The notes: generated by a model not told the origin, from the letters alone. Shown: positions 31,138 to 53,195, counted from the first letter of the stretch. The stretch is 64,000 nucleotides of DNA from a virus (IMGVR_UViG_3300035208_002098:1-64000), one strand, 5' to 3'. Numbers and translations: made by a program.

Positions 31138-31621
31138 AATATATAATTTTTAGCACCTATAATACACAAATTTTATTAGAATATTGATGCATTATTAAGG
31201 TCTAGCTTGGTTCTCATTAGCATTGATAAATGCGTTTTAGTCTCTAGGTAATAACTCCCGTCTCTAAACCACTAATTCTTTGAACGAACACATTCCCTTA
31301 CCAAAGGGGAACAATACTTCTAGGATTTCTCCATAAGTTGGTTTATCTTAGGTCACACCTTAACAACCATGTTAACTTTTCCACTTACAACTTGTTAAAC
31401 CAAGTTTAGTATCTATTTATACTCTCAATGTTTAGCGAGTGAAGGTTTAAATGCTTAACGTCTATTGTACCTACAAGTAAGACAGTATTAAAATAAGACT
31501 CTTGGCGAGTGTTGCAACACCTGAGAAGGTGATTTAACGGTTATACCAGCAACAGAGCTTGACTATCCATTCAGTAAGTTATCTCGGTTATTCTTACTTA
31601 GAATCTTATTATGTTTTAGTG

Positions 31622-31781
31622 TGGGTAGGTCAGGAGTTGAACCTGAAGGTCTAACCTCGTGTACTTAGAAGTTCAAACAACCTATGACTTTTATTAATAC
31701 TTTGTACTACTTTGTACGCCTACGCCATAGTTTACTTATATTTGTTTATTATCAATGATGACACCATGTCAGTTCCCACCC
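31622..31781 (-). ncRNA. Oversized tRNA-like RNA A (~160 nt)
   Basis: Acceptor GGGTGGG/CCTACCC; T-arm TCAGG-TTCAACT-CCTGA; no canonical anticodon arm. Confidence 0.6.
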
Positions 31782-31798
31782 GAATGTTTTAAAAATAA

Positions 31799-32003
31799 TT
31801 GTGATGACAGGATTCGAACCTGTACAGAAACTGTTCAGTTAGACGATATAACCGTCATGCCTAACCTCTTTGAAGTGCTACATAATGTAAATTATAGGCC
31901 TAGACTTATTAACCAATTTACCCCTCTAATAGTTTATTTTCAAGGTTATCACTATCGTTTCCTCTCAAAGTAGATGCTTTTGGTCTAATTCAGCCACATC
32001 ACA
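31799..32003 (-). ncRNA. Oversized tRNA-like RNA B (~205 nt)
   Basis: Acceptor TGTGATG/CATCACA; D-stem GCT/AGC; T-arm ACAGG-TTCGAAT-CCTGT. Confidence 0.65.
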
Positions 32004-32047
32004 ATTATTATGGTTTTAAGAGCTGTTCAAACACATTTAACTGACAA

Positions 32048-32084
32048 GGTGTAAAAATACCTTAATTTGAAACCTATTTACAAC
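32048..32084 (-). repeat. Solitary CRISPR-repeat variant inside a stem-bounded ncRNA module
   Basis: ggtgtaaaaATACCTTAATTTGAAACCTATTTACAAC, flanked by complementary aagagctgt and acagcactctt. Confidence 0.85.
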
Positions 32085-32124
32085 TCACTAGACAGCACTC
32101 TTTAATTTTAAATTTTAAAAACAA

Positions 32125-32292
32125 TCATAGTAATAGGATTTTAACCTATAAAACAGTTTTCATTAGTTTTTATACTGGGACATTTACGCCAGAGACTTAA
32201 CTGAAAAGTCCGCTACTATTAGTTTCACCCTAGATTCATTTCAAATCTAAATTACACAATGGGATAGTGTCTTTACATTCCACCACACTATA
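32125..32292 (-). ncRNA. Oversized tRNA-like RNA C (~168 nt)
   Basis: TATAGTG-TG-GTGGAATGTAAAGACAC 5' half; degenerate T-arm ATAGG-TTAAAAT-CCTAT; 3' acceptor strand TACTATG. Confidence 0.55.
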
Positions 32293-32560
32293 ATTGTTTA
32301 TATTTTAAAATGATTGATAATCTGACTTCTTATGGCTACAAGATTGTATCAGCTTATGCTGTGTGATAGTATCAATCATTTATATTTTAAAATAGATTTT
32401 GAAAGATATAGGCTTAGTCTCTTCATCCTTATTCTGGCGAGATACTGTGAGAGTTGAGTATTTCTACTACATTACTAACCATCGTACTTATCTAACTCAA
32501 TAGACCTTTTCTTAATCTTCTCACGAAGATATTATCTATTTTATATTTTTTATTTTATTC

Positions 32561-32622
32561 TGTCAATGAACTTTGTACTTTTAACTACACTGCAAAGATA
32601 AAATTATTTTTAACATATGCAA
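32561..32622 (-). promoter_or_regulatory. Promoter plus boxA-like element heading ncRNA cluster 1
   Basis: TTG...TATCTTTG (-7 box at 32593-32600), then GTTCATTGACA at 32561-32571. Confidence 0.7.
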
Positions 32623-32639
32623 GTATTTTAGATAAAAAA

Positions 32640-32939
32640 TTATGGGTGTTTAAAATAAATTTTTTTAACTATTCTCCCATTTTCTTCCTTTTCTTTTTCG
32701 TGTGATATATCTTGTAAATATTTATCGATAGCTAATTTAGCTTTCTCTAAAGAATAAAAATTATTCCTACCAAATATATCATCATTTAAATTTTCCCAAA
32801 ATAAAAAATCTACTATAAAGAAGGTCCACCCAAATATAGGAATAGCGTATATAAACCAACTTACATCCGAACCTTTTTTTTGCGTTATATAAGTTTCTTT
32901 ACCATCTTTGGTAATTTTTAAGACTATCCTTGTTTTCAT
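32640..32939 (-). CDS. Paralog 2 of the TRI...HP family
   Basis: MKTRI...PIFGW...AKLAIDKY...FKHP. Confidence 0.7.
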   Translation of the reverse strand: MKTRIVLKITKDGKETYITQKKGSDVSWFIYAIPIFGWTFFIVDFLFWENLNDDIFGRNNFYSLEKAKLAIDKYLQDISHEKEKEENGRIVKKIYFKHP

Positions 32940-34644
32940 TTATTAAAATGGTTTAAGCTTTTTGTTTTACTTTAATATCAAATACTTTAATATTTTGTTT
33001 AATAGTTGAATTACCACTATTAATAACTTTCTCAATATGTTCTTTGATTTGTGATTCATTAAAGTTAACCCAATCACTAACCACTTCAATTTCTATTTTA
33101 TATACTGATGCCATATTATACTTTTTTCCAACCGCTTAATAATTTAGTTAATTCTTCGTTACTATAATTACTACGAAAATTAGCCATAATAAATTGTTTG
33201 TTATTATCCAATTTCATCAATAACAAATTATCTTCTATGAAAATATTAGTTATTTGGTTAACACCAGTTAAAAACTGTATTGGGTCATCATGGGAGTTTT
33301 CAACAAAGAAATGTCCTTGCCATTCAATCATGTCACCAATATGTACATTCACATATTTGGTTACACCATTTTCTTGTTCGAATTCATCATAGATTTTATC
33401 TATTTTAGACATAACAGCTTTAGGTTTGCCGTAAGCATCTTTGTCATCACGAAACATTTGTTTAGCTTGTTCTCTATTCATAATTATTTTAATAAGACAT
33501 TAATATATTCAGTTGCTTTTTCATACCCCCAAGCGTGAATTAATTTCTCATACTTAGTAACATCTTCATTGGGGAATAACGCTTCTGCAGATTCTTTTAT
33601 AATTGAATCACACCAATCGATACAAATAACACGTTTCCTCCAACCTATTTTGATTCTACCTTTTGTAGTAGTAACAACAAACCATGGTAAATGTTTTGAA
33701 TAATAACTATCATCATAACCATTTGGTATTTGTTCTACAAAGATAACTCTATCACCAAAACAATTAATAATACCAGTTTTTTCATTAATGGCATCTATTT
33801 TACTTTGAGGGTTAATACTAATAGTTTCAGCTTGGATAGATTCTATTAATCTACGTATATGATAATTAATATTAGCTTTATCAATTTCAGTAAATTCTCT
33901 ACCAACATCTAATAAAAGTTCTAAATCTATTGATTGATTAACACCAATTGTCTTAATTGTAATTACTGATTCTTTCATATTTTACGTTTTTTATAAACTT
34001 TAATAAAATGAACACACGATATTATACCTGATATTATGAAACAAGACCCACAAAAAAACTGCATAAACATTTTATTTGTTATATATAAGTCTACTAACCA
34101 AAGAATTGCACCTAATAACCATATAAGGGCTATATTTAAATTTACATTTCTCATATTATTTTTCGCTATAAATTAATAACCATAACGGATAACCAGATGA
34201 TGCATTCACAAATGGTACAACAGCTAGAAGTTTACATTTTTTCTTAGTATATTCTTTTAGGAAAATATCAATTTGGTCCATATCCATATTACCAAACGCT
34301 CCGGTACCCCAATCTTTACCTGTTGCTTTTTTAATAGCACCTTTATAATCACCATCCCAACCAACAAGTCTATCGGTATAAAGACTATTTATGTTAGCTT
34401 TTGGAAATTGTTTCTTTATTTGTTCGAAAACTTCCATGGTTTCTTCAGTAGTTATTTTAGTACCAATAGCATAGTTACTAGAATACATTCCTCTAAAGTC
34501 AAATGGGTATTTTATTAACCCATATTTAAGTGGGTGCACCGTAAAATATCCGTAGTCATAATTTATAAACATAATTTTTATATTTTAATATTATAATACA
34601 AAGATAAAACAAATAATTGTAACTACCAAATAAATAACTATAAA

Positions 34645-34947
34645 TTATGGATGATTAATATAATATGTTTCACTTATTTTTTTACGAGCTTCTTCTTCTT
34701 TATCTTGGTTATAGCTAACTAAGTATTTATCAATCGTTTCTTTAGCTGTTTCAAGTGTATTGAATTTATTAGTGGCTCTTGAATAATATATGGTACTCCA
34801 AACATACTTATCGTATATGTAATGAATCCAACCAAATACTGGTACAAAATATTTAAATATATCGTCAGTATCTACATTATCTCGTGATTCGATAGTATAT
34901 GTTTTTACTGAATAAGGGTTAACATCAATTTTAATTCTTGTTTTCAT
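34645..34947 (-). CDS. Paralog 3 of the TRI...HP family
   Basis: MKTRI...PVFGW...AKETIDKY...INHP. Confidence 0.7.
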   Translation of the reverse strand: MKTRIKIDVNPYSVKTYTIESRDNVDTDDIFKYFVPVFGWIHYIYDKYVWSTIYYSRATNKFNTLETAKETIDKYLVSYNQDKEEEARKKISETYYINHP

Positions 34948-37903
34948 ATATTATTGTACTTTAAGCCATTCTTTAAGACATTTCTCAAATTCTTCTTCTA
35001 ATTCATCATCAGAGAATTCATTATTTTTATAAAAGTGAAAAGATTTACGACATATCGCTTCAATTTCTTTCATTGAAATAGATTTTTTAACTTTTGGTTT
35101 TTTAGGTACTTCCACACGTTTAAGTACTATTATCTCATCTGGCGAATCAGCATCACACAAACCGCCATCTTTACGATATTGGCTAATAGTAAATGATAGT
35201 GCCATTGTTTCGGTTAAGTCATATATGTATGTTGTGATTAGATAATCACTACCCATTTTTTATTTATTATCACCGTTCCAAACCATATCGAATAACCCAT
35301 TTAAATCTTTTTCATCCAATATGTCTTCGATTTCATCTTCCATATCAACATCAGTACCATGTTGAATTAACGCATCGAGTAAATCATTTTTTATATCATC
35401 CCAACATGTAATGGTATAAAGTTCTTCATAAGTATATTTTGCCATAATATTATTTTTTACGTTTTTTCTTTTTTGGTGTTATATTGGTTGGTTTATGTCT
35501 TACTTTACGTTTATAACCATCTTCATTATAATATAATGGGTCACGTACAATTATTTCGTTTGAATTACCATCTGTTTTAATAGTCCAACCTCTTGGTAAT
35601 TCTTTACCTTCGTATCTATCTCCTTCTGTCATACTGATTCACCCCACATTTTATTAAGTTTTTTCCAAAACACACCAATCTCATATAAAAATAAATCGGT
35701 TGTTTCTTGAACAGTTAAACCACCACTATCATTTGGCGTGTCTTCAATATTCAAATAAAAACCCATAGAATATCTGATATCATCCTCATATTTCCAATCG
35801 CCATTGTCTAAATCAATTTGTATTGATTCATCCCAATCTTCTGGTAATGTATGGTGATACCCAACAATTTCAATTGTAAATGATTCTGGTCCTCTATTAC
35901 AAAAAAACTCAATTAATTTGTTATCAGGGAAAACTTCATCAATTAACACACTATCAATTTGTCTATAACCATTTAGTTTTTTATAAGTTTTTATAAATGG
36001 TTTAATTAAATCTTCTATTTCTTTAGATGGAAATGGTAAATATTCATTTACGGTTTTTTTCTTACTCATAAGGATTATTTCAAAAATTCACCTTTAAACC
36101 ATTTTCGTTCAACACTATTTGGGTCTTGTAAATATTCTTTTAATGAATCTGTTAGTTTATCTATTGATTCAACTGCAAATTTTTGACACCCAACTCTAAC
36201 TACATACCCAAAATCTAATGATTCGATTTCAATAAATCTAGCTTTATTTGTTCTTGATTCTGCTTCAACCATAACTTCACCACCATTAGAACACTTTGGT
36301 TCATCAGGCAATGGACGTTCTGCCATAGGTCTTTCATCTAATACTTCATTCATACTTTTACTTGTTAAATTAATTTATATTATTTTTAAAGTACAAAGAT
36401 ATATAAACTATTTTATTATTTCAAGTTATGTTTTAGTTTTATTTCTTCAGTATTAATTAAAGTCTCTTTTCTTTTCCAATTATTATTTTCATCACCAACT
36501 CTATAAGAGAGATAAGTTATGTATGTTTTCTTAACCACTTTGTATGGATTAATTAAATTATCCTTAAACCATTGGAAAACATCTTCACGTTCTTTAGGTA
36601 TATAATAGGTTTTCCAACCTTCTTGGTGAGACACTAATATTTTTTCATCAAATTCTAAATATTCTTCAAAGCATTCACTAGCCGAAAACATATATGTCAT
36701 ATGCCACCACATTGAATCTTTCCCAGATAACTTTTCAGCCAATTTCCAAATAAAGTCATTAGCATCACGAGCTCTATCTCTATGTTGTAACAAAGTTTTT
36801 TTATCATCTAATCCGTATTTTTTTAACCGATATTCATCAGCGTAATAACGAACCCTAATAATATTATAATCAGTACATTTCATAATTTATTCAGTAAAAT
36901 ATTTAACATATCTATCAAATATTGCAACACATTCAGCTTTACAAGCTTCGATATCCTCTAATTTAAAGTATCTTTGTGTAATAATTTCGTATTCAACTTC
37001 ATTACCGCATTCACCAGTATATAATCTATCACCGGTTATTCCACGTCTATCAATTCTTAGCCAATCTAATGGAACATCTTTATTTCTATAAGAATAATTA
37101 CCATGTTCACCTTCAGATAATCCAACAGATAAAAATACTTGTCCTTTAAAGTCAACAGATATTCCTCGCCAATAATTATCGGCCTCTGGTTTTTCATATA
37201 GGTATTGTTCAATAAATTCCAATTTACCTAATTGTGTTTTTTTAAATTCCATATTATTCAATATTTGTGGTTTCATTTTTATCTTCAGGGCACCCATCTT
37301 CTTTCCATTCTTTAATATCATCCAATACCCATTTCACTAAATCTTTATGTTCTTCTAGAATTTTATGATTTTTAGCTAATATTTCAATAGCTTCGGGTGT
37401 ATCACCACCATTTTTATCAACTGGTAAAGACATTTGACCACCATGTTTTATAATTAGATAAGATTCTATTGTTACCTTAACTCTTACTTCTAATGGTATC
37501 CTTTTTAATATATCGGAAATCCTATTATTGTGTTCCATTTAATTTAATTATTAATGATTTTTTCTTAGACAGTTTTAATCGTGATAAACCTTCTAGAACT
37601 CTACGTACATATGGTATATTACATTCAAATATTTCATCAATTGATAAAAACGATAGTTTCTTAAATAACTCAATCTTATTATATATGAACTCACCAGTTT
37701 CATCATATGAAGTTACAACTAAATTAAGGTCATCAACTGTTAAATTATAGCCATTAAGTTTTAATTGTTTATTATTCATAGCAATCTTTATATCACTAGA
37801 ATATAAGCCATTAAGTCTTAATAATTTATCAATTGTTAATATATCAGTCGTTTCCATTTATTTTAATTACTTTCTTTAATACCATTAAGAATGAATTCAT
37901 CGT

Positions 37904-38545
37904 TCAATTAAACTTATTTATCTCTATGTAAGTCTCATCTTCTTGTTTCACTCTTACTTTACTTTTTAGGGGAGTAAACTCCTTGTCATCCATAATTGGT
38001 AAGTCCACAAGCGTATATTCGGACAAACGTTGCCCTATTTTATTTTCATTATATAATCTGTTACCTTCATACTCTATATTAATACTTGCATTAACATCCC
38101 TATCAATTTCTAACCCACAATTATCACACTTATATATCCTATCTGATAACTTTAAGTTATATTTGATGTTTCCACAACAACTACATTTCTTTGATGATGG
38201 ATACCATCTACTAACTAAAACCATTTCTCTACCATACCATTTAGACTTATATTCAATTTGTTTTCTCATTTCATATAAACCTAATTCAGCGATAGCTTTA
38301 CTTAATTTATGATTTATCATCATTCCACTAACATTTAAATCTTCTAATATAATTATTTGGTTCTCTTTAACTATTTTAGTTGTTATGTTATGAAGGTAAT
38401 CTAACCTCTGATTCTTTATTTTTTCATGTTTTCTGGCTAATTTTAATTTACTTTTATATCTATTATTACTACGACTATTGATAGTCCAATAAAAATGTTT
38501 CTTTTTTTCATATTTATAATTTATTAAATTTCTTCTAATATCCAA
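37904..38545 (-). pseudogene. tnpB: 5'-truncated TnpB (RuvC-II, Zn finger and RuvC-III only)
   Basis: ILEDLNVSGM, PSSKKCSCCG...CDNCG and DRDVNASINI present; RuvC-I and the N-terminal half are missing. Confidence 0.85.
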
Positions 38546-41500
38546 TCAGTTAATAATGTGTCAGCCATTACTTCATTATAAGCCCACGAACACTTTGTCC
38601 AGACAAACGTATCTTTAAATTGTTTATGAATCGTACCATCTTGAGCAACCCGTAATGTAAATTTCTGATATCCTTCTTTATCAGGATATCGTTTAGCATA
38701 TTTAAATGCTGATGAAAGACCATGGGTTGCTGTCTCATAAATTTTACCTCTTTTAGATACGTTAGAACCTCTATGTCTATGTGGTTGGTAGTATAACCCT
38801 GTGGGTACATGTTTTACTTTATATGGTTTCATTTTACTTCTAATTTATCTAATATTTCTATTTGAGCGTTGACTTTATTAAATAATTTACCGAATTCTAT
38901 CGGATAAGATAGTCTGTAGCCATCATCATCAAAAGCTTGTGATGCCATAAAATCATATAAATCAATTAAATCTTCTTTAGATTTAACTTCTGATAATCTT
39001 CGTTCAACAGAAGAAATAAATAAATTACTATATTCATCTTTAGTTGATGAACCTTTGGCCATTAGTAACCATATTCCACTTGAAAACATAAAGGATAAAA
39101 ATGTAATCATGGTTGTATCACCAAGTATGTTAAAAAATAGTAATATTAATGTAATTAATAACCCACTAACGAAAATAATTAAACCAATTGTTGACATTAC
39201 ATTTGAAAATTTATTTTCTGTCCAGTCATATTTTTTATTTTCCATAATTATTTCATTCTTTTTGAAGTTTCACCATTCCAATTATCTAATCTAGCGTAAT
39301 ATGGGAACATTTTATAAAACATTGCCCACACTCGTTTTGACCTATTTTTCTTTGGGTATCTAACTTTATGACAATTTTCACCACCACTACCAACATACGT
39401 ACCTTTATTATCCCTAGTTTCTTTTTCAGGACTTTGAGAATACACTAGACCACGTTTATATTTATTAGATTCTAAATTAATAAACATGTCACGAATACTA
39501 TCATATGTTAACCCAAGTTTAATACCTATATTATAAATTTCGAATACTTTATTAATAATAATAAGCTCTTCTTCAGCACCTTTATGATTAACTAAACCCG
39601 TTAATTCTATTTTACGTAGCTTAATATAATTAATATCTGTATGCCTTAAATAGCCACTATATCTAGGTTTATATAAATACTTATTCAGTAATTTCTTATA
39701 CTCTCTTAATTCTTTAGATTCTACCATAATATTCTAATATTGTTTATATTCACTTAAATCAAAACATTTTAAATTACCATCTTTATCCCACCCAACTTCG
39801 TGTCTACATCTACCAGCAAATAGTATCTGTTTCATACTCATTTTTCTTTCATCCCATTTAATTGGATTACAGAATTCTTGTTCGATAACATTACCATTAA
39901 GTTCTAAAGATGTTTTAGCTAATTTAGTACGATTTTCTTCTGATGATTTTCTCCACACCTCAAATTCCTCAAGGTTGTAATCTTTGTGGTCTTTTTCAAT
40001 TAAGAATTTAATGACTTTAGTTTTATCAGCATTAACAAACACATGGCGAGTTAACCCTGAATCCCAATATGCAAAAGCTTCACCATTATATAAAACAATA
40101 TCACTTGTTACATCTCGTTTTTTTTGTTCTAGTATTTGTTCTATTTTCATCTTTAAATTTTTTAATAACCTCTAATAATTTTTTATCTTCTTTTTCTCCA
40201 TAGAAATAAGATTCACTATAGTTTAATCTAGTAAGTATTTCTTCTAGTTTATCACCAAAATAATCGGCTTTAGTTTTTTCATACTTGTATGCTGCCTTAT
40301 CAGCTTTAATAGTAGCGTTTAAGATATCAATTTCACTTTGATGTTTAGTTTTATTTCGTTTGAAGTACCATCTAGCATTATTATGACTAGTATTTAACAT
40401 AGCTAGTTTAATATTTTCTATAAAGGTTATTAACGTAAAATCTTTAAAATAATTTTGTTTATCTCGTTCAAAAAAATATGTAGCATGGTCTTTAGATATA
40501 TCCATGTCATTTAAAAACTTAGTTATTAAACCAGTTACTTCTGAATCATCAGTACCTTGTTCATATACAAATACATCAACTACTTTAATAAATAATTCTG
40601 GGTCTGTATTTTCAAAATAGTCTTGGACTAGTTTTTGAATTTGTTGTATATCACTCATAATACTTAATTTATTATATAATGTTCTATATCTAACGTTTCA
40701 TAATATTCAGCTTTTAGTGCTGAGATTTTTCTATCTAGTTCATCAGTATATTCTATGGTATGTTCTTTAAACCATTTAGAAGAAATTAAAGCATTGAAAT
40801 CGAAGTTATATAATAAACAATCAATTGCATCTTCGGCTTCACTAGTTTTAATAAAATTACCAATACCACCAACCCAAATACATTCTTTACCAGCCACAAT
40901 GCATTTGCCAGTGTCTAATAATTTTCTTGCAATACCTTCCCATCCGGCATATTCATCATTTTTGAAAAAATGTAATAACAAGTATTCTTTTTGATAATGA
41001 GTTAATTTCATATTATTATATTTTAATTATAATACAAAGATATAACAAAGTTTTTACAATTCCAAATATTTTATGGTAAATCTTCTATTCTAGATTCAAT
41101 TAATTTAAATTTCCTAACACCACATACTATAACGTCACAATTAAAATCAGTTGATATATTAATACAAGAATTTGAATTATGGCCAATTAGATATATATTC
41201 ATTGAGCTACCAGTATATTGGTAAGTATCCGTTATAGTCTCTACATCACCATTAGTATATGTCACATTTAGTGTATAATGATATAAATGTTTTTGTTTTT
41301 TTGTCGAACAAGATAGTAAAATAATTAGTATGGTTATTAAATATATTATTTTTTTCATTTATTGTAGGAATATATAATTTAACTTTGATTTATATAAATC
41401 ACCATCTATTTTAAAGAAAAAATCTGATGTGTATATACCAATATAATTCCCAAAATCTTTAATTTGACTAACATTATTAGGCAAATAGATTGTGTTTTCA

Positions 41501-42959: not shown

Positions 42960-43415
42960 TTATAATTTAAGATTTGTTGCGGTGTTATATAATATTAAAG
43001 CTAATTGGCCTGACATATGAAACTTTGTTTTACAAATATCAATACTATCATATATATTACCACCTTTAGTTCTTTCGGCTGCAGAAACCCAATCAAAAAA
43101 TGCTTCAACTAAATCACCTAAGTCAAACCCATTAATACCATTATCATGAAATTCTGGGTGATGTGAATTAGTTTTATAATGATGCTCTAATATTTCTTCT
43201 AAATCTCCCATATTAGATTTATATTCTTCACTCCCATATACTAAATCCTTTAATTTTGGTGTCATATGGTCAAGAACTGATTTCTCAGGTTCCTCTAGTT
43301 TTGAATTATCATGGTTCTCAGCACGTAATTGTAATTGTACTATAAAAGCATTCATAAGTTCTTTGACTCGTTCTTTGTGCTTTAATGTATCTTCTGTTGA
43401 ATCGTATATCCCCAT
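42960..43415 (-). CDS. HD-like/DUF5662-type phage protein
   Basis: H...HD.SK...HHY..N.HHPE...D...DW motif. Confidence 0.55.
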   Translation of the reverse strand: MGIYDSTEDTLKHKERVKELMNAFIVQLQLRAENHDNSKLEEPEKSVLDHMTPKLKDLVYGSEEYKSNMGDLEEILEHHYKTNSHHPEFHDNGINGFDLGDLVEAFFDWVSAAERTKGGNIYDSIDICKTKFHMSGQLALILYNTATNLKL

Positions 43416-43416
43416 A

Positions 43417-43995
43417 TTACATTAAGGTATTAAATTTAATCTCAAAATCATTATAATCATCACAAAAAATTATGAAATCATAATAAACCCCAAGTTCATT
43501 GAAAATGTCTAATAATACTTTTTTCCATAAACTACCAAGCACAAACATTTTAATATCTGTTGATTTACTTAGAGTAACTATATTAATTACTAACATAATT
43601 TCTGCTAATGTTCCAACACTACCCTTTTGTACAACAAATAATTCAGTGTCTTCAGTTAATGTTTCTAGTCTAGAACAAATAGTTTTATTTCTAAATCTAT
43701 ATTTTAAATAATCATTACCAATACTAGTTTTATGTACATCATCACATAAACAACCAATGGTTTCACCACCGGCTTCTTGTGCTCCTTTTGATACAGCTTC
43801 CATTAACCCAAAGTATCCACCAGAACTTACAGTATATCCCTTCTCAGCTAAAAATTTACCTATTAGAATCGTTTCCGCATATTCTTGTGTGGTTCTGTCA
43901 TTTTGTCCACCACCAAAAAATGTAACATCTTTTATTTCATTCATAATTTTATTGTTTATAATTTTTAGGTATATAATTGTAATATGTAAGAACAC
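43417..43995 (-). CDS. LOG/SLOG family nucleotide-binding protein
   Basis: GG..GLMEAVSKGA..AGG and GSVGTLAE motifs. Confidence 0.8.
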   Translation of the reverse strand: MFLHITIIYLKIINNKIMNEIKDVTFFGGGQNDRTTQEYAETILIGKFLAEKGYTVSSGGYFGLMEAVSKGAQEAGGETIGCLCDDVHKTSIGNDYLKYRFRNKTICSRLETLTEDTELFVVQKGSVGTLAEIMLVINIVTLSKSTDIKMFVLGSLWKKVLLDIFNELGVYYDFIIFCDDYNDFEIKFNTLM

Positions 43996-44246
43996 CTATT
44001 AACCAATAAATGTTTAAATCTGTACTATAGATTGTACTGCCTTCTTCATTTTTAACTTCGTAATGGTTATTTAAAATCATTACAGAGCACAATTCATTAA
44101 TGTAGCAATTATCACCACATTCTTTTAAGCCATTTTTTATTAAAAAGTTTTTTACTATATCCATTTTAAAAAGTATTTTCTATTTTTTTATAATTCCATA
44201 AACATAATCTACACATATCCACTTGATAATTAAATTTTTATGTTCT

Positions 44247-45494
44247 TCAACTAGTGGTGTACTTTTTGTGCCTATCAATGTCGCTTTCCATGTGAACTAT
44301 ATCTATCTCTTTAGGTATAGATACTTCGGAAGTCAATACTCCTACTAACGTAGGCAGCTCGTTCCGATTTTTAAGTCTAAGTTCCTTAGACAAGTTTATT
44401 AATGCGAATGATTTGATATTGTTGCTTGCTAACAAGTCTCTATTGTGTGTTGTATGACAAGATTGACAAGTCCAAATTCTATCACTAAGTTTTAATTCTT
44501 TGTTTACCACACCACAAGTGCACATTCTACTACTTGGTTCAAATTGACCTATACGTAATTGATTACAACCATACCACTCAGATTTATAATCAAGCATTTC
44601 ATTGAATTTGCCAATAGCAATATCTGATAATGCTTGAGCAAGTTTATGATTCTTAATCATATTACTTGGTTTTAGTGTTTCAAGGCAAATAGTATCATAA
44701 TTTGTAGTTAAGTAATGACTTATTTTGTGCAAGAAATCCTCACGTTTATTAGCAACTTGTTCATGTAACAAAGCTATTCTTTCTTTTGTTCTTTTACCTT
44801 TAAATCTTGAATATTTACTTTGAGTGTATTTTAATTTACTCATAGCTTTTTTAAGATATTTAGGGTTTTCAATTTCTATCCCATTAGATAATACAGCAAA
44901 TGTTTTAATTCCTAAATCAATTCCAATAGCTTGGTTTTCACTAATTGGTTTCTTGGTAGGTATTTCTTCATTAACTTCTACTAATATAGAAATATAATAC
45001 TTCCCAGTAGGTGTTTTACTGATTGTAGATGTTTTTATAATTCCGTCAAAAACTCTATGTAATTTTACTCTTATCCCTTTTTTGAATTTAGGTATGTGTA
45101 TTTCTTCGTTACACAAGTCAATTTTTGTATGTTGTGGTATACTGAAAGATTGTGAATTATTGTGCTTTGATTTGAAGTTAGGGAATCCTTTTTTATCTCT
45201 AAAGAATTTAGTAAATGCGTTGTCTAAATTTTCTAAAGCTGATTGTAATGTTTGTGAATTAACTTCTTTCAACCAACAAGTGGCTTCATTATTTTTAAGA
45301 ATAGGTAAATTCTTTTGAATATCAAATCGACTAATAGTTTTCTTATCTAACTGATATGATTTAACTTTAAGGTCTAACCCATAATTGTAAATATAACGGC
45401 TACAACCAATGTGCATAGCAATTAGCTGCTTTTGTTCTTTGGTTGGATATAGACGATATTTATAAGCTTTATAAATCATAATGCAAATATACAA
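44247..45494 (-). CDS. tnpB: Full-length TnpB (IS200/IS605 OrfB); probable start MIYKAYKYRLYP at ~45479
   Basis: KAYKYRLYPT HTH, GIDLG RuvC-I, LETL RuvC-II, Zn finger and RDLLASNNI RuvC-III. Confidence 0.93.
   Translation of the reverse strand: MYICIMIYKAYKYRLYPTKEQKQLIAMHIGCSRYIYNYGLDLKVKSYQLDKKTISRFDIQKNLPILKNNEATCWLKEVNSQTLQSALENLDNAFTKFFRDKKGFPNFKSKHNNSQSFSIPQHTKIDLCNEEIHIPKFKKGIRVKLHRVFDGIIKTSTISKTPTGKYYISILVEVNEEIPTKKPISENQAIGIDLGIKTFAVLSNGIEIENPKYLKKAMSKLKYTQSKYSRFKGKRTKERIALLHEQVANKREDFLHKISHYLTTNYDTICLETLKPSNMIKNHKLAQALSDIAIGKFNEMLDYKSEWYGCNQLRIGQFEPSSRMCTCGVVNKELKLSDRIWTCQSCHTTHNRDLLASNNIKSFALINLSKELRLKNRNELPTLVGVLTSEVSIPKEIDIVHMESDIDRHKKYTTS
44272..44400 (-). ncRNA. TnpB reRNA/omegaRNA 3' region and guide
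   Basis: GAAG-TATCTAT...ATAGATA hairpin, then GTTCAC (44292-44297), resembling an IS200/IS605 right end; predicted guide ATGGAAAGCGACATTGATAG. Confidence 0.6.
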
Positions 45495-46041
45495 ATAATT
45501 TTTGTATAAACCAAGTTTTTTTAGTTAATAATTGTTTTATTCTTACATCATGATTAAAACAAAAACGATAACCATTTACCTCATTAAGTTCTATTAATTT
45601 AATATCAGCTACCTCATCTTTTTCAGAATTATTAGTGTTAAATTCATTAATCATTTGAAATAAAGTTTCTTTCGAAGTTATTATATCAAACTGATAATAT
45701 AATGTAACATTTTGTTTATTAGTTATTTTTTCAGTAATAACAAATTTTGGTTGTTCATTATATTTAAAATCATATTTATCAATGTCTAACCCAGTTTCTT
45801 CATATATTTCCCTTTTAGCTGCATTAGCACCAGATTCATCCCAATCTAAATACCCACAAGGTAAATTCCAATACCCTTGAAAATCTGGTGTACCGGTTCC
45901 ACGTTTATTAATCAATACATATGACTTATTTTTAACTTTCACATTAACTAAAGCAACAACAGCAACACTTCTTGATATCCAATATTCTATACCATCTGAT
46001 ATGATACATTTATTTGGTGTGTTATTAAATTTCTTTCCCAT
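45469..46041 (-). CDS. NUDIX hydrolase
   Basis: G.....E....AA.RE..EE.G Nudix box (CGYLDWDESGANAAKREIYEETG). Confidence 0.9.
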   Translation of the reverse strand: MGKKFNNTPNKCIISDGIEYWISRSVAVVALVNVKVKNKSYVLINKRGTGTPDFQGYWNLPCGYLDWDESGANAAKREIYEETGLDIDKYDFKYNEQPKFVITEKITNKQNVTLYYQFDIITSKETLFQMINEFNTNNSEKDEVADIKLIELNEVNGYRFCFNHDVRIKQLLTKKTWFIQKLFVYLHYDL

Positions 46042-46386
46042 TATTGATTTAATTTAACTAATAATTCATTATATTCATCTTCAGTACCAACAAAATGAAT
46101 GTAAAACTCATTTGTTTTATCGGTATGGTCTGAAATGTCATGTTCTATCCAACCTTGCTGTTTCATTAATAGCGTTAATGCTCTCACACTTTCTAACCTT
46201 AATTTATCGTTTGTGTAATATTCAATCATTAATTGGGCGTTATCAATACCATATTGTATATAATCATCGTTTTTAAATATCGGTGAATTTTTAGTGGTTG
46301 ATTCATGTAATTTACCTAATTGGTAAGAAAAGAAATCACGTAATTCAGATTTTTCTAATCCAATATGTACTTCATTATCTTTCATA

Positions 46387-46992
46387 TTATTCAGTTTTAT
46401 TTGTTTCAAAAATTATTGATGTATTACACGTGATTACTTGGCTTTTAATATCTTTTTCAGTACAAATAACATACGATGCGTATTTTATTAAATCATTGTG
46501 TGATGATTGATGTGAACTAATTGCATCGAATCGTGCTTGATTATCACCATCACGTTTCATAACTCTATTATACCTAATTAATAAATCATTCTTTTCATCA
46601 TATGATGCTATAACTGATATTACTTTATCAAATCGTTTATCTAAACCAACCTCTAACCCTTGTGCACATTCAACTATAATATACGGACTTGTTTGTTGAG
46701 AATACCAATAGTTTAATTCACCAAAAATTAATTTACCCATGAAATGTTGTATGGTATCCCTCTTATATTTATTTTTGAAGAATATATCTAAATATTTATG
46801 GTTTAATTTATAATTATCGGTAAAACAATCATGTCCAAGTACATCACGATACATATTTTGAACTGATTCATTAGTTAGTAATAAATTTCTATTAACGGTA
46901 TCAAAGTTAAATATAGGTATACCAAGCTCTTCAAATATTTTTGAAACTGTTGTTTTACCAGCACCAATACCACCAACTAATAATACTTTCAT
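46387..46992 (-). CDS. coaE: Dephospho-CoA kinase
   Basis: GGIGAGKTTV P-loop, LGIPIF..D, and R...RD...Q lid motif. Confidence 0.8.
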   Translation of the reverse strand: MKVLLVGGIGAGKTTVSKIFEELGIPIFNFDTVNRNLLLTNESVQNMYRDVLGHDCFTDNYKLNHKYLDIFFKNKYKRDTIQHFMGKLIFGELNYWYSQQTSPYIIVECAQGLEVGLDKRFDKVISVIASYDEKNDLLIRYNRVMKRDGDNQARFDAISSHQSSHNDLIKYASYVICTEKDIKSQVITCNTSIIFETNKTE

Positions 46993-49185
46993 TTATTGTA
47001 AACTTTTCATGTTTTCTCGTTCAACACCTCTACGAAATTGTTTGTCTTTTTCACAAGTGAATTTTTCGTAAACTTTTATTACGGCACCATCTAATGTTAC
47101 CACTGCTTTGTTTTCTTCGAATTTAGTTTTATACTTTTTCATATTAAATATTTTTTACAAAGTTACTTTATTTATTTCTATTTTTCAAGGTATTAATAAA
47201 ATATAATTTAATTTACTATTAAAATCCCATTTTCAACTGTAAATTGATTATATATTAATATAACATTATTAAACTCTATCATAGCAAAATCATTCACATA
47301 ACTTTCTTCACTAATATCATATCGTGTTACGATTATTTTTAAAGGATTTACAGCTCTTTCATCATCTGATATAAGTTGAATACATTTATATTTATATTGG
47401 CGTTCTAACGCTTTATTTTTAAATAAATAATTTATTGCGTTTATAACACTTTGTATTCTAATATCATTACATCTAACGTTAATACATTCATCATTAAATT
47501 TATTTAAGTTATAAATACTAGACATTATATTTATAGGAACCAAAAAATATCCGGGTATATCAATTTCTTCGTACTGTCGTTCACGTAAATTACCTTGTGG
47601 CATCATAACAAATTGGTTACGATTATTCAGTTCATTAAAATGTTTATTAACGATAGCTTGATAATGGGGATAAGAAATAGTAACAGTAAAAATTGGTATA
47701 TATTCCACAAAGCAATTTATTATAACCCATTACCTTTAACTAACTTAAAGATAACACCACATTTATTACATGAGCGTGAATCACTAGTTTTATAACTATG
47801 ATATCCGGGTCCTAAAACACCATTATTTTCATAAGTACTATTATCAGATATATTTTTAGATTTACAAACCGGACATTTAATAACTAATTTTGGTTCTTCT
47901 TTTTTAATACGATTATCAATTTTTAAATTATCTGGGTTAGAAAAATATTCATTAATAGTCGTTGCTGCCGATACTGGGTCATAATCTTTTGTATAAAAGC
48001 TTTTTTCTATTAATTCTAGTGGAATAAGTTTATCTAAAGCACTTGGTATTTTACCAATAAATGGTTTACCAATAGTACGTTCAATCGGTTCTATTTTTTT
48101 CTTTGACATAATTAATATCGATAATTGTTATTATTAAAATTATTTGTGTCCATATCTGCATCAAACTCATTAGTAACAGCCCAATAGAATATACCTACAC
48201 AAGCTAAGAATACTAATATATAGACTATTACAGCATTCCCACGCATTTTAAATATTCGTGATACTGCATCAATTACTGTATACCCATCACGCATTACTTT
48301 AGAACAAATTAATACGTTACCATTACCTTTTTTCGGATATTGTTTTGGTGATTCATTTGTTATGTTTGGCATCCAAAGAATTAAATCCATGTTCATTTCA
48401 TGTGGTAAACTATCTAATGTACCACCATTAATCACTTCAGTTATTTCTAATTGATTTGCTATTTTAGTAACTACTGACGAACTCTTTGGTTCATCACCAA
48501 AATTACCACCTACAATTAAAGTTTGTATATTTTTATTTATTACCATTGTATTGAGAATGAGATTAAACCATGTATTTTTTTGAATGAAAAGAATTTCTCT
48601 TTTGGTTTACTAAATTGTTTATGATAGTTAATTAGACGTAACCACATTTGGAAATCTTCTTTTTCTTTAACCGTTAATTTACTATTTAATGTTTCAAAGA
48701 TATCTCTAGTTATTTTAGAATCATTTGAAACCGTAATTAATTGTGATGCGTTAAATTGTTCCATTATCATATTTTTTAAATAATTCTTTTAATTTAATAT
48801 TGGTATTTGACTGACATCTATCAAACATGTCATCAATAGAACTACTAATTTCTCGTTTAAATTCAATTATTTGTCCATAATACACAGTGTATGTAAAAGA
48901 TAATGACAATTTAAATGAATATTCATCATAGATTAAACCACCGCTTACTTCGCTAAAATAAAATATAATACCATTGGATTGTAATCTAATAAGATATTCC
49001 TTTATTCCGTGTAATAAATACTGTGTGTATTTATTTGGGTCCAAAATTCTATTTATAAAATTAATATTAACTTCATCAATAATCTTATCAATACCAGTAT
49101 CAACTTTATTATATTCATCTAAGTTTGAATTACTTATGTAACACCTACCTTGATTACTTATTTTAATTGCTAAATCAATCATGTT

Positions 49186-49629
49186 TTATTTATGTTTTAA
49201 TAATTCTGGGTTTTGATGAATATTACCAACCACAATAACATATGATTTAAGTGGAACTAATTTATATTCTCTTATTTGTTTACCATGATTATATTTAGAA
49301 CCATTTCTAGTACAAAAACAACCATTATAGAATATAACCTCACAATTAATTGTAGTACCGTTATTACCATCTTTACAAGCAACTATATCACCATCATAAA
49401 TTTTAGTACCTTTACGGTCATCAACACCAGTATACTGACCTAATGTTTGATAAAGTATATCAGTAAATTGGTTAAATTGGTCACCACAAGGGTCTGACAT
49501 TGTTGGGTTTGTTTGTATAAACTCTACAATTTGATGACAACATTTAGCTGCGTTATAATGTGGGTAACCATAATGCCACGCACCATCATTTAAACCCCGA
49601 TAGTCAATTTCTCTTTTCATTATTTCCAA
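49186..49629 (-). CDS. YopX-family phage protein
   Basis: REI.YRG, GQYTG..D..G..IY.GDI and VVGNIHQNPELL motifs. Confidence 0.85.
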   Translation of the reverse strand: MEIMKREIDYRGLNDGAWHYGYPHYNAAKCCHQIVEFIQTNPTMSDPCGDQFNQFTDILYQTLGQYTGVDDRKGTKIYDGDIVACKDGNNGTTINCEVIFYNGCFCTRNGSKYNHGKQIREYKLVPLKSYVIVVGNIHQNPELLKHK

Positions 49630-51438
49630 GAATATTTAATTTTAAAATCCCAATCACCGATAAAACGTTTTCTAAATACTTGTTTAGCTTTTTGTATTAC
49701 ATCTTCTGGTGTGTCAAATCTATATGTTGGTTCATCAACATCATAATCTTCAAATCTTTTAGCATGTAATGTTTTATCTGATTGTGTAATCATTCTATTA
49801 AGTTCAATAGTCCAATTTACCCAACCAATTGGAAAATCACCATCCGCAAATGTATTCCATGTTTTACCATCAGTACCTTCAAATTCTACATCAGCACCCT
49901 CAAAGGTAAGTTTACCATAATAATGGATTGCATCACCAGATATACCACGATATGAAGTTATGTTAAGAGTAACTTTTCTTTTTGTGTTTTTACGTACACT
50001 TTCTAAACTAGCTGTGTATACTCTTTCACCTTTAGTAAATTGGTCACCATGTTTTACTGAATGGTAATCAATTGTATCAGGAGCATTTTCTTTTGAATCG
50101 TCACCAAATATAACTCTTTTCTTAAAATAGATAATAATCTCATCATCACCATCTAATATTTCAACATTATCAAAATCTTTCTCTTCCTCAACTTCTTTGA
50201 TAACTTCAACTGATTTTTGATTTTCATCATATAATAATTCACCGGTTATTTTATTAACCCAATAATAATTAAAATAATCGTCTTCATCTGGTTCATCGTG
50301 TTCTTTAACGATATATTCAGTGCCATCTTCATCCCAAACAGTTACTACAATAGCGTTTTGATTTCTATTTTTAATAGCATCGATTAAATCAATACCAGTA
50401 ATAACACTTTCAACGCCTCTGTGATGTAAGTACATTGCGTATCGACATTTATATGATTTATTAGACATAATATATTATTTTAAATTAAACATATGCAAAG
50501 ATAAATAAAATAAATGATAATACCAAATATATTATGATTTATTTTTTAATTTACGTTTTTGGCCATGATATTCAATACCTTTAAAACTATTTTTATCAAA
50601 ACCATGTGATTCAATTTTAATTAAATCAGTGATTTCTTCTTTTTTTAATTTTATTTCTTCATCGGTTAGGAAAGAATATTGTTTTTCATATCGAGCCCAT
50701 TTTTTATATCGTCTGTCATTTAATTGTTTACGGTGTCTATCTTCTCGTTTAAGACGATGATATTCTTTATCGTTAACATCATCAAAATGTTTCCAAAAAC
50801 CACTTACAACTATTCTAGCCCAACGTCTAGGATTATCACGCCAAGTTAAATTGTTTTTAATTTCACCAGTTTCATTATGATGATAACCTTCAGCATAATC
50901 ATATGATTCGAATGTTACACCATTACTAGTATCTTTTTTACGTTTACGATATCTTTTTTTATATTCAGGATTTATTTGGATGTTACCTTTATCATCAACA
51001 ATGTACTCGCTTGGATAGCTAGAATATCCCCAGCTTTGGTGTTGGTTAAAGTTATCTAGAAATTCATATTGTTCATAAACTTTAACTTGATTACAATAAT
51101 AACTAAAGGCTTTATCAAATGATTTACCTAAGAATTTTTTAATAACTCTTTCTGCTTTAACCCAAGGGTAATCACTTTTTTCACTTCTATAATGTGGATG
51201 GTCAAAACGTGGTAAATCCCACATATCACCATATTTTCTAGTAATATAAGCTTTTCTACCTTCTTTGAATGGAAGAGTTTCTAATATTTCAATATGTTGT
51301 TCCATGTAATACATTATTATAAATAGATAAAAAAAATGGTAGCTTACCTACCAGCACGAGTCTGAAACGCTCCGAGTGTCTACCCAGCCACACCGGTCTC
51401 CAACCAGTTGTCTATCAGGTACTTAATTGTGGCAATCG

Positions 51439-51570
51439 TGGGGGAACAGGCATCGAACCTGTATTTACACTTTGGACTGTCGTGCAATTATTACGCATTT
51501 CGTGGCACCATTCTGTCCTAGACTCGGCTTATCCATACGTTATAGTGTCTACCAATTCCACCATCTCCCC
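51439..51570 (-). ncRNA. Oversized tRNA-like RNA D (~132 nt)
   Basis: GGGGAGATGGTGGAATTGGTAGACAC (Leu-like D-arm) ... ACAGGTTCGATGCCTGTTCCCCCA. Confidence 0.65.
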
Positions 51571-51675
51571 AAATGTAGTCTTTTCCTACAGTCAACGTTA
51601 ACCTATTGCAGTCTAAACGTATGTGAGTTCCTCCGATTTGAAAGGTGTCGCTTAACTCATTCGTGCATATCCTTG

Positions 51676-51803
51676 TAGGATGAATAGGATTCGAACCTAT
51701 AATGTGTTGCCCGTAAGACGCTTGGTTGCGGAGCAGTGCTATTTCACAACGCTTACTCTATTACTCTCTCAGGACTCGTGTATACCAATTCCACCACCAC
51801 CCT
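51676..51803 (-). ncRNA. Oversized tRNA-like RNA E (~128 nt)
   Basis: AGGGTGGTGGTGGAATTGGTATACAC ... ATAGGTTCGAATCCTATTCATCCTA. Confidence 0.65.
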
Positions 51804-52026
51804 ATTTTGCTTTACATTGAGATTACATATAAAGTCTAGTTATTATCGGTTTTCTTTCTTTCAATAAACCTGCCACACTTCTGTTGTTTAAAAAAGTCAA
51901 ACTACTTGGAGCCTCTGTTACCTAGCTTTTATTCCCAACGAAACTGGCGTTTAAGGATGTCCAGTTCAATACCCTACCCATTGTTATAAGTCTTGGGTTA
52001 AAGACCACTTGTACCTCTTACAATTG

Positions 52027-52097
52027 TGCTGCGAATAGGACTCGAACCTACATCCTGAAGTATTTCCCTCCCTGTTCTACCATTAAACTACCGCATC
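52027..52097 (-). tRNA. Normal-length tRNA-like gene with non-canonical anticodon loop (pseudo-tRNA)
   Basis: GATGCGG-TA-GTTTAATGGTAGAAC...GTAGGTTCGAGTCCTAT-TCGCAGC-A; loop GGAAATA lacks U33. Confidence 0.55.
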
Positions 52098-52252
52098 ATT
52101 GTTGACTCGACTTTAGCCCAGTCTTTTATATAAGCATATAGGTTATATATCTTATATGGCTACCTAGAATTATGTCTAGCTCACATCTAGGGGACTCAAC
52201 CTTTACACTTGAATCAGAGGTGGTTGGTACTATTCATTATGTGTTAGAGACA

Positions 52253-52294
52253 GTTGTTTTAAAAATATATCTTAATTTGAAATCTATTTACAAC
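52253..52294 (-). repeat. Solitary 42-nt CRISPR-repeat variant
   Basis: GTTGTTTTAAAAATATATCTTAATTTGAAATCTATTTACAAC on + strand. Confidence 0.8.
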
Positions 52295-52508
52295 CCATTC
52301 CACCACATCACCATTTAATCTTTAAAAATACTACATCTGGTTAAGTGTTCGCCTCCACTGTTCACCAATTATTGAGTGCCTTACTGTAAAAGTAGGTGAC
52401 CCATTTTACACCCCCGATATCGGTAAACGACCTCCTAATCAGGTTAATATAGTATAAAGTTTTAAAAAGAATCATTATGTTTAGGTTTTTGTTACTATTA
52501 ATTAGAGT

Positions 52509-52550
52509 GTTGTTTTCAAAATATACCTTAATTTCAAACCTATTTACAAC
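52509..52550 (-). repeat. Solitary 42-nt CRISPR-repeat variant
   Basis: GTTGTTTTCAAAATATACCTTAATTTCAAACCTATTTACAAC on + strand. Confidence 0.85.
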
Positions 52551-52900
52551 GATACTCCCCTTTCGGCATGTAACTCGCTCAACCATGCATAAGATTCTCT
52601 ATATTTTAAAAACCATTAGTCTTGTGATGAATAAACTTCAATGTGCGGTGGGTAGCAAACTCGGCTTCTTTTCAGATAACTTATACTGTTTATATTGTCA
52701 CTAACATGAATCACAACTTCATATATAATAAGTAGTTCTTGCATACTATTTGGTTGGTATGTAGGCTGAAAGCCAGCTTTAGCAACGCTCTTATTATTGT
52801 TAGCTCCAATCTAATGGTTAATATTTAAAAGGGGTTACTCAATGGAACACTATATATTTGTCATAGCTCTTATCACTGTATTAACTTCACCCCAATTTTA

Positions 52901-52911
52901 TGTCAATGAAC
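52901..52911 (-). promoter_or_regulatory. boxA-like element within ncRNA cluster 2
   Basis: GTTCATTGACA on - strand. Confidence 0.6.
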
Positions 52912-52917
52912 TAATTG

Positions 52918-53050
52918 TGCCCGTAGGAGGACTCGAACCTCCATGGTTTTGTTTTATATCATCACGTTAATGACTTTATTATAAACCGTATCCCACGTTC
53001 AAGGCTTGCAATCCCATCCTGTGTAGCTTTACCAATTTGCTTATACGGGC
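52918..53050 (-). ncRNA. Oversized tRNA-like RNA G (~133 nt)
   Basis: Perfect acceptor GCCCGTA/TACGGGC; D-arm AGC-AAATTGGTAAA-GCT; T-arm GGAGG-TTCGAGT-CCTCC. Confidence 0.7.
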
Positions 53051-53060
53051 ATTTATTTTG

Positions 53061-53194
53061 ATGGTCTATTAGGATTCGAACCTAAGTAAATGCTACCATC
53101 AGAGCTTATCCCTACTCTCACATTTACTTTCTACTCTCCATTCCCAGTTGATAGTTCGTGCACAGACAAATCAACCTTCTGTAGATATACACCC
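53061..53194 (-). ncRNA. Oversized tRNA-like RNA H (~134 nt, degenerate)
   Basis: T-arm TTAGG-TTCGAAT-CCTAA; imperfect acceptor GGGTGTA/TAGACCA. Confidence 0.45.
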
Positions 53195-53195
53195 A

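Follow-up and report, generated by a model that had tools for sequence, protein, structure and literature searches.

In the first 64 kb of a 248,412-bp virus record from IMG/VR (IMGVR_UViG_3300035208_002098), we found two islands without long genes that carry a family of oversized RNA units built on the frame of a transfer RNA (tRNA), most of which appear to hold unrelated sequence at the place of the anticodon arm. We refer to this whole stretch of 64,000 nucleotides (nt) as the window. Judging from sequence comparisons, we consider the chances even that these units are non-decoding small RNAs that are released and stabilised by tRNA processing and whose middle domain is the payload. The record comes from a jumbo phage and is estimated to be about 70% complete; its G+C content is 27%, and nearly all genes lie on the minus strand. 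About 48 ordinary tRNA genes are present, in arrays at 93-162 kb of the record, outside the window.

The islands, in which no open reading frame (ORF) reaches 100 amino acids, span 31138-32639 (island 1) and 51315-53195 (island 2), with the units on the minus strand. A custom scan for a T stem of 5 base pairs (bp) with a G53-C61 pair and a UUCRA loop, followed by an acceptor strand able to pair 60-420 nt upstream, returned eight T arms across the window. All eight were on the minus strand and within the two ORF-free islands, and this confinement to the islands and to the strand that carries the genes supports the interpretation as tRNA-framed RNAs. T-arm motifs as such occurred 10 times on the minus strand of the window, compared with 1.8 in shuffled sequences and 1 on the plus strand. 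The eight units are as follows:

52918-53050, minus strand: oversized tRNA-shaped RNA, 133 nt (RF00005 at 36.2 bits, custom scans, constrained fold)
51676-51803, minus strand: oversized tRNA-shaped RNA with a Leu-type D arm, 128 nt (RF00005 at 30.7 bits, homologues)
51439-51570, minus strand: oversized tRNA-shaped RNA with a Leu-type D arm, 132 nt (homologue at L211:523-655)
52027-52097, minus strand: normal-length tRNA shape, 71 nt (RF00005 at 38.5 bits; no ARAGORN call)
53061-53194, minus strand: weak tRNA-like unit directly after the stop codon of the acyl carrier protein gene acpP (model R1 at only 14 bits, E about 0.9)
31799-32003, minus strand: oversized tRNA-shaped RNA, 205 nt (model R1 at 23 bits, E 0.005)
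32125-32292, minus strand: tRNA-derived unit, 168 nt (custom scan; homologue of the 3' part)
31622-31781, minus strand: tRNA-like unit, 160 nt (model R1, partial match only, 17.9 bits)

An initial annotation, made from the sequence alone, had described seven oversized elements in two clusters. Six of these are well formed (128-205 nt), with coordinates that agree within a few bases, whereas 53061-53194 proved weak; the single unit of normal length, 52027-52097, indeed has the non-canonical anticodon loop attributed to it, GGAAAUA with G33 and U37 and without any insert. The runs of ARAGORN and Infernal that had been proposed as a check gave a divided answer. ARAGORN at default settings called 0 tRNAs and 0 transfer-messenger RNAs (tmRNAs) in the window, while the tRNA model RF00005, with a gathering cut-off of 29 bits, passed three of the eight units, all on the minus strand (52027-52097, 52918-53050 and 51676-51803). 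Its alignments required inserts of about 59 nt in 52918-53050 and about 69 nt in 51676-51803 at the place of the anticodon arm. None of the island 1 units reached the cut-off; 31799-32003 gave a partial match of 17.6 bits.

Acceptor stems of 6-7 pairs were present in seven of the eight units, with 7/7 Watson-Crick pairs in 52918-53050 and 31799-32003, and a canonical T arm (5-bp stem, G53-C61, 7-nt UUCRANY loop) in all except 32125-32292. As encoded, a canonical anticodon arm (5-bp stem, 7-nt loop, U33, purine at 37) was found in none of the eight. The extra bases at its place number 50-150 nt, and about 50-60 nt in four units of 128-133 nt. In 52918-53050, the 7-bp acceptor is accompanied by a 3-bp D stem with G18G19, the T arm GGAGG-UUCGAGU-CCUCC and the trailer A-CAAUU (base 73, then what follows it); a constrained fold of the middle gave two hairpins (about 30 and 47 nt) and no anticodon loop, and a search for a split anticodon loop found none. 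Unit 31799-32003 combines the acceptor UGUGAUG/CAUCACA, U8, a D-like arm and the T arm ACAGG-UUCGAAU-CCUGU with a branched middle of about 150 nt. The acceptor GGGUGGG/CCUACCC, a D-like hairpin with GG, the T arm UCAGG-UUCAACU-CCUGA and the trailer A-CACUA were recognised in 31622-31781, which has no U8. In 32125-32292, seven acceptor pairs (two of them G-U) and a Leu-type D arm (TGGTGGAAT, with the D-arm start UGGUGGAAU) stand beside a degenerate T loop, UUAAAAU instead of UUCGA. The weak unit 53061-53194 retains the T arm UUAGG-UUCGAAU-CCUAA and the trailer U-CAAA; its D arm and 5' acceptor strand are poor, in that 6/7 acceptor positions pair, the other being a G.G mismatch, and the alternative is a unit of 108 nt.

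The strongest evidence that the frame is maintained came from homologues, which we found for three units in other phage contigs. Searches of IMG/VR with two flank proteins or the phage's CRISPR (clustered regularly interspaced short palindromic repeats) repeat gave no close relatives, GenBank phages gave no match, and the best match to the DnaB-type helicase in IMG/VR had 59% identity. The protein encoded at 50532-51314, just downstream of island 2, does have relatives in metagenome assemblies, and the contigs that encode them supplied unit homologues. Two further members of the 51676-51803 family (on L220 and L221) were found in other metagenomes with a 20-nt piece of its insert. As exact patterns, the insert cores had 0 matches in IMG/VR and 0 in genome_contigs; model R1, run on 142 sources (the window and 141 loci), mostly found tRNAs again and added no further members of this family, and the distant relatives G001-G005 held no homologous inserts.

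The 51676-51803 family, with members at L212:1984-2109, L220:1132-1258 (minus strand) and L221:1623-1749 (the last within a tRNA array), is the best documented. In the four-way alignment, the acceptor sequences are wholly different, yet 7/7 pairs are retained, all of them by compensated changes. Overall, 96% of the cells are paired and 14 of the 27 pairs changed on both sides, a result matched by none of 500 shuffles; slid registers also fell far below the observed pairing. Double changes occurred in the D, anticodon-type and T stems as well, and the D stems themselves are of the Leu type (3 bp) in two members and of class I (4 bp) in the other two. Within the insert, all four members share a stretch of about 40 nt (GAGUAAUAGAGUAAGCGU.GUGAAAUAGCACUGCUCCGC) with no or almost no variation. 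A long extended stem suggested by the single-sequence fold of 51676-51803 was rejected, as the homologues were only 61% paired along it and showed no covariation.

Similarly, 51439-51570 has 91% identity to L211:523-655: four pairs are compensated, four show G-U-type changes and none is broken, and the 34-nt loop region is identical in the two. This region belongs to a long middle arm, which is followed by a separate variable-arm-type hairpin, the T arm and the trailer A-CGAUU. For 32125-32292, the 3' 105 nt have 80% identity to L212:1285-1389, including a compensated pair. The retention of the tRNA elbow and acceptor, as asserted in the initial annotation, is thus borne out by compensatory changes in the 51676-51803 and 51439-51570 families and lacks such backing in three units without a homologue. 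Because stems are compensated and the insert core is conserved, random decay is excluded for the compared families, and the decay without covariation that had been named as the finding that would overturn the original idea was not seen. As far as these alignments tell, the inserts in the compared families are under tighter constraint than the tRNA frame. Such conservation points to a specific partner, which may be a protein, or RNA or DNA recognised by pairing, rather than to a merely bulky arm.

We then considered whether the inserts interrupt an anticodon arm or replace it. In the test, any single segment was removed, and the remainder was required to form, at the place fixed by the D arm, a stem of 5 bp closing a loop of 7 nt in which position 33 is U and position 37 a purine. 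Only 51676-51803 qualified; the other five of the six oversized units had no rebuildable anticodon stem-loop. Replacement of the arm, as first proposed, therefore stands for those five and is unsafe for 51676-51803, which has a covarying stem and a U-NNN-R-N string. In this unit, an anticodon-type stem of 4-5 bp (AGUCC/GGGCA) and U32 are followed by the 52-nt insert, then U-CUU-A-C, a 7-nt variable region and, beyond the T arm and acceptor, the trailer A-CAAGG. Its fit to an intron counts against replacement of the arm as a rule for all units.

In our assessment, splicing of the units into ordinary tRNAs that decode, along the lines proposed for the 'enigmatic introns' of Lak megaphages, is unlikely; the probability that we do allow such intron-bearing tRNA genes comes mainly from one family. 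For 51676-51803, this would place an intron between nt 32 and 33 and yield a tRNA(CUU), or a tRNA(CAC) in L220 and L221. All four members of the family carry a covarying 5-bp anticodon-type stem (GUCC/GGGC, CUCC/GGGG, CUCG/CGGG), with one nucleotide before the insert and U-NNN-R-N after it (UCUUAC twice, UCACGA, UCACAA), and the six bases 3' of the insert lie outside any conserved helix, all of which is in keeping with an intron. The phage also encodes an RNA ligase domain (132080-132649 of the record), and introns in phage tRNA genes have been reported (Devoto et al., 2019; PMC6784885). Yet the five units without a rebuildable anticodon arm do not fit. Splicing would leave a variable loop of 7-8 nt and, from the window copy, a Lys anticodon in a tRNA whose D arm is of the Leu type; such a loop and the mixture of D-arm types would be unusual in a decoding tRNA, just as an invariant 40-nt core would be unusual in an intron that proteins remove. 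The arrays that hold the phage's tRNAs, at 93-162 kb, are also at a distance from the units. With its intron option, ARAGORN recognised two of seven units, one as Ile(AAU) and the other as Leu(GAG), on weak stems; its intron calls imply implausible A34 anticodons, and an intron-bearing tRNA-Ile(AAU) is an implausible reading of 51439-51570.

The splicing machinery that introns of this kind would need was also not apparent. No match to the group I intron model RF00028, to any other ribozyme or to a further Rfam family apart from tRNA was found in the islands at E up to 5, which agrees with the first reading of the inserts as too short for group I introns (about 50-60 nt in four units); known self-splicing introns are much longer. 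The same Rfam search also led us to reject GOLLD/ROOL and the like, tmRNA, Y RNA and small ribozymes as identities for the islands. Neither EndA (PF01974) nor RtcB was found within the 248-kb record, which represents about 70% of the genome; in controls, EndA was detected only in archaea. The junctions, read by eye, have no strict bulge-helix-bulge motif. A narrower possibility, which we regard as improbable, is that the 51676-51803 family alone is a tRNA split at 32/33 by an intron of a new class, 52 nt long and with 40 invariant nt at its core, which would be removed, for example, by a new small ribozyme, or by tRNA-processing cuts with sealing by the phage RNA ligase.

In a sample of IMG/VR phages, the oversized tRNA shape proved common, and both kinds of it seemed to exist. 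A pattern with a Leu-type D arm, 70-100 nt and GGTTCGA matched at least 116 loci in IMG/VR. Among the matches listed, 88 had sound acceptor and T stems; 85 of these measured 101-141 nt and 73 were unique. A complete Leu anticodon loop split by an insert was found in 19 of those 73, which shows that real split-loop tRNAs occur in phages and in this respect favours introns, and in 14 of the 19 the loop was exactly CUUAAAA with a proper class II variable arm; shuffles gave 2.6. The other large group, 49 of the 73 unique shapes, had no rebuildable anticodon loop of any kind, which speaks for non-decoding RNAs. Among the matches listed, then, sequence patterns divide the phage shapes into two classes, split-loop tRNA-Leu, which probably contain true introns, and arm-replaced shapes; the window units, apart from the doubtful 51676-51803, fall into the arm-replaced class. 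Within the split-loop set, a tRNA-Leu(UAA) family with an insert of about 50 nt in CUUAAAA recurs at nine loci (L116, L142, L146, L147, L157, L158, L162, L173 and L180). The insert in this family is a minihelix ending in ACCA, with its own T-arm-like hairpin in L162, and what resembles a nested tRNA acceptor end in the anticodon loop could be a substrate for ribonuclease (RNase) P.

The middles of the window units did not align to each other, in agreement with their earlier description as mutually unrelated, and the inserts had no homology within the genome. Nor did any of the 48 tRNAs match a unit closely enough to serve as a normal-length paralogue marking an insertion point.

The flanks of the units resemble those of true tRNAs. 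Directly after base 73 (N73), the trailers of the 48 true tRNAs have a C in 46 cases and CAA in 29, and an N73-C(AA) trailer follows 5-6 of the eight window units and three of the four homologues. The 5' leaders of the units are AU-rich, like those of the true tRNAs, and a terminator scan placed an intrinsic terminator with a T run at 51337-51353, where it closes island 2. Trailers, leaders and terminator would fit long precursors that are cut by tRNA-processing enzymes of the RNase P and RNase Z type.

Under the payload interpretation, minus-strand transcription of each island would yield a long non-coding precursor, which for island 2 would run from behind acpP to the terminator at 51337-51353. 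Host RNase P would cut the 5' end of each acceptor stem, and the 3' ends would be matured at the N73-C(AA) signal as in true tRNAs, by RNase Z or exonucleases followed by CCA addition. The products of these cuts would be tRNA-shaped RNAs with protected ends and, in addition, the intervening segments, some with a solitary CRISPR repeat of the IscB type. The acceptor stem, D arm and T arm would then act as handle and armour, and the middle domain would be the working part, probably binding a protein or a nucleic acid.

The same frame could instead serve as a lure. Decoys or sponges of this kind would soak up host factors that recognise the tRNA body or acceptor, such as sensors or defence toxins that cut or modify tRNAs, without disturbing translation, and all that would count in the middle is the absence of an anticodon arm. 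The intact acceptor, elbow and A73 combined with missing or non-canonical anticodon loops are what such look-alikes would require, several different frames occur in one phage, and many true tRNAs of the same phage are built on unusual long-arm bodies. We nevertheless consider a decoy role rather improbable: a pure decoy leaves unexplained why the inserts are conserved above the frame, and no defence or toxin partner was identified.

Several observations weigh against a payload function. Insert folding was no better than that of shuffled sequence (z = -1.06 to +0.73), and since the inserts are not unusually stable, a 'structured cargo' is not supported. A search of the 248-kb record for insert complementarity or antisense targets found none beyond tRNA parts, and thus no partner. 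The acceptor of 51439-51570 is defective, its 3' strand being short by one base, and for 52918-53050, 31799-32003 and 31622-31781 no homologue was found, leaving selection on them unproven. In L091, the closest relative with sequence at the site, an integrase gene and a gene of 408 amino acids take the place of island 2, which indicates that the island is dispensable.

Part of this evidence would also suit genomic debris, in which tRNA genes were broken by insertion, by recombination between tRNAs or by mobile-element traffic and have no function of their own. The absence of the island in L091, inserts of ordinary stability, the missing acceptor base of 51439-51570, the degenerate 53061-53194 and the degenerate T loop of 32125-32292 all agree with this, as do the TnpB element that abuts the 32125-32292 homologue in L212 and the two TnpB copies of the window. 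Debris seems to us very unlikely all the same, because every stem of the two comparable families shows compensatory changes with no broken pair, the same insert core recurs unchanged in four divergent frames, which come from four samples, and tRNA-type trailers are retained. Remnants of a phage attachment site (attP) were ruled out, as both acceptor strands are present and covary.

Islands of this type are variable between the relatives compared here, and they are not confined to the window. Further units of the same kind lie at 109063-109189 and 110244-110371 of the record. In G002, a complete 362-kb genome of a distant relative, a non-coding island of about 1.6 kb (L209; G002:32071-35109, minus strand) holds four oversized tRNA shapes (113-132 nt) and one 77-nt unit, all with an N73-C trailer; in two of the four oversized shapes, a second canonical T arm is nested in the insert. 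That G002 has its own such island indicates that the islands are a lineage trait, though their contents differ.

Other features of the islands are conserved or recurrent:

32057-32084, minus strand: solitary repeat of the IscB-associated CRISPR array, 0 mismatches to the pattern
52267-52294, minus strand: solitary CRISPR repeat, pattern match
52523-52550, minus strand: solitary CRISPR repeat, pattern match, within island 2
51804-52026, minus strand: conserved non-coding segment between two tRNA-shaped units, about 75% identity to L212:1766-1983
51337-51437, minus strand: conserved 3' non-coding RNA segment and terminator, 85% identity to L211:505-768, 46 nt identical

In all, the islands hold four solitary copies of the repeat from the phage's IscB-associated CRISPR array. 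The repeat at 32057-32084 is separated by 41 nt from unit 32125-32292, which precedes it, and by 44 nt from unit 31799-32003, which follows. A comparable order is found in L211, where a tRNA (347-419) is followed after 17 nt by an IscB-type repeat (437-472) and, about 50 nt later, by the homologue of 51439-51570 (523-655). With repeat units flanked by tRNA or tRNA-like units in island 1 and in L211, tRNA-type cuts would release the repeat units. At most, this arrangement suggests a unit resembling CRISPR RNA framed by tRNA-type processing sites, in the manner of a natural tRNA-guide array. Directly 5' of the repeat at 52267-52294 are 18 nt (52295-52312, minus strand), GGTGATGTGGTGGAATGG, that resemble the 3' part of the acceptor and the D-arm start at the 5' end of Leu-type tRNA or tRNA-like genes. 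At five other phage loci, oversized tRNA shapes have 5' ends that match this sequence with 2/16 mismatches, and it resembles the start of 31799-32003; if it acted as a guide, tRNA-like genes would be its targets.

The similarity over 51804-52026 is part of a single 373-nt match to L212. Nearby, 52027-52097, which has the trailer A-CAAUU, is probably non-decoding, and it has counterparts at a conserved position (L211:347-419 and L212:1676-1765) with a different odd anticodon arm in each phage: GGAAAUA in the window, UUAAACA in L211, and an 8-bp stem with a 14-nt loop in L212. Positions 34-36 read AAA in both the window copy and L211:347-419. The last RNA of island 2 (51354-51437, minus strand; L211:656-768) is conserved and contains a T-arm-like hairpin, ACUGG-UUGGAGA-CCGGU, after which D-arm-like and anticodon-arm-like pieces come in an unusual order; as an exact pattern, this 3' RNA had 0 matches in metagenomes.

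Among the neighbouring genes, acpP (53196-53441, minus strand; PP-binding, E 3.6e-15) is the gene immediately upstream of island 2. A collection of 5.8 billion proteins contained no relative of its product, nor any of the other flank protein, at 30835-31137. In L212 (3-1389), 2 nt separate the end of a full IS605-type TnpB gene from the sequence that follows it, which is homologous to the 3' part of 32125-32292. A shared TTGAAC after the TnpB stop codon marks the element end, by which the element seems to be inserted into that RNA gene. The TnpB copies of the window (37904-38545 and 44247-45494, minus strand) comprise a truncated one that matches at 83% over 188 amino acids and a second, full TnpB at 34%.

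Unusual bodies were also seen among the phage's true tRNAs. At 95-160 kb of the same record (G000; loci L002, L003 and L005), outside the window, about 12 true tRNAs of 83-90 nt have a long variable region and mostly a 3-bp D stem. They cover Thr, Lys, Glu, Gln, Val, Cys, Arg, Asn, Ile, Trp and Met (e.g., 97954-98039, 100562-100647 and 117367-117547) and usually adjoin a normal-length tRNA of the same anticodon.

The closest described design is that of T4 rnaC. In the annotation of AF158101, this 139-nt species 1 RNA adjoins tRNA-Arg; its sequence and fold show the T arm CCGGG-UUCGAAU-CCCGG and a terminal helix formed from its two ends, and the positions of the D and anticodon arms are taken up by about 100 nt. 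It shares with the window units a size within about 120-200 nt, the T arm, the terminal helix, the lack of an anticodon loop and a place among genes for tRNAs or non-coding RNAs. This is a likeness of design alone; no sequence similarity was evident by eye. Its terminal helix contains two U.U mismatches and it has no clear D arm; furthermore, T4 has one such RNA beside true tRNAs, whereas here seven or eight occur in two separate islands interleaved with solitary CRISPR repeats. The T4 tRNA cluster encodes another small stable RNA, rnaD or species 2 RNA. For species 1 RNA, we know of no function assigned in some fifty years.

Lak megaphage tRNA genes were reported to contain conserved 'enigmatic introns', called by tRNAscan in eukaryote mode and without evidence of splicing; conservation of these inserts across genomes is high, and a tRNA-like piece occurs in some of them (Devoto et al., 2019; PMC6784885). 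Both cases involve oversized tRNA genes in huge AT-rich phages, and the inserts with nested T arms in the L209 island of G002 extend the likeness. The Lak cases, however, were called with a defined anticodon and an intron, while most window units have no recoverable anticodon arm. A likeness is also seen to the bacterial Y RNA YrlA, a non-decoding RNA that mimics the tRNA elbow and acceptor. The ends of YrlA form a Ro-binding stem rather than an acceptor, and the RNA is bound by Ro60/Rsr. We found no Rfam match to Y RNA in the islands and no TROVE/Ro60 gene in the 248-kb record.

Two laboratory designs follow the same logic. In the engineered tRNA scaffold that Ponchon and Dardel are said to have introduced in 2007, an RNA of interest replaces the anticodon arm to gain processing and stability. 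Polycistronic tRNA-guide RNA arrays, reportedly developed by Xie and others in 2015, place tRNAs between guides, which are released by RNase P and RNase Z. The order found here and in L211, of a tRNA or tRNA-like unit, a short leader, a CRISPR repeat and a tRNA-like unit, is alike; the difference is that those arrays were built in the laboratory, whereas natural use by a phage is what we infer here.

Oversized tRNA-like RNAs are thus a known kind. What is new is their density, with seven or eight units in two dedicated operons apart from the tRNA arrays, together with the evidence that inserts are constrained above the frame, the division into two classes and the link to solitary CRISPR repeats. 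This dense set, with its homologous families and context, could make the question of enigmatic oversized phage tRNAs testable. If one family did prove to be split by a 52-nt intron, an element well below the size of any self-splicing intron, bacterial viruses would have a form of RNA splicing that is new, and maturation of this tRNA would be conditional on infection. Operons with solitary IscB repeats suggest that tRNA-type cuts may punctuate other phage RNAs as well, and if the tRNA frame does act as a scaffold for processing and expression, it would be the natural counterpart of a widely used laboratory trick.

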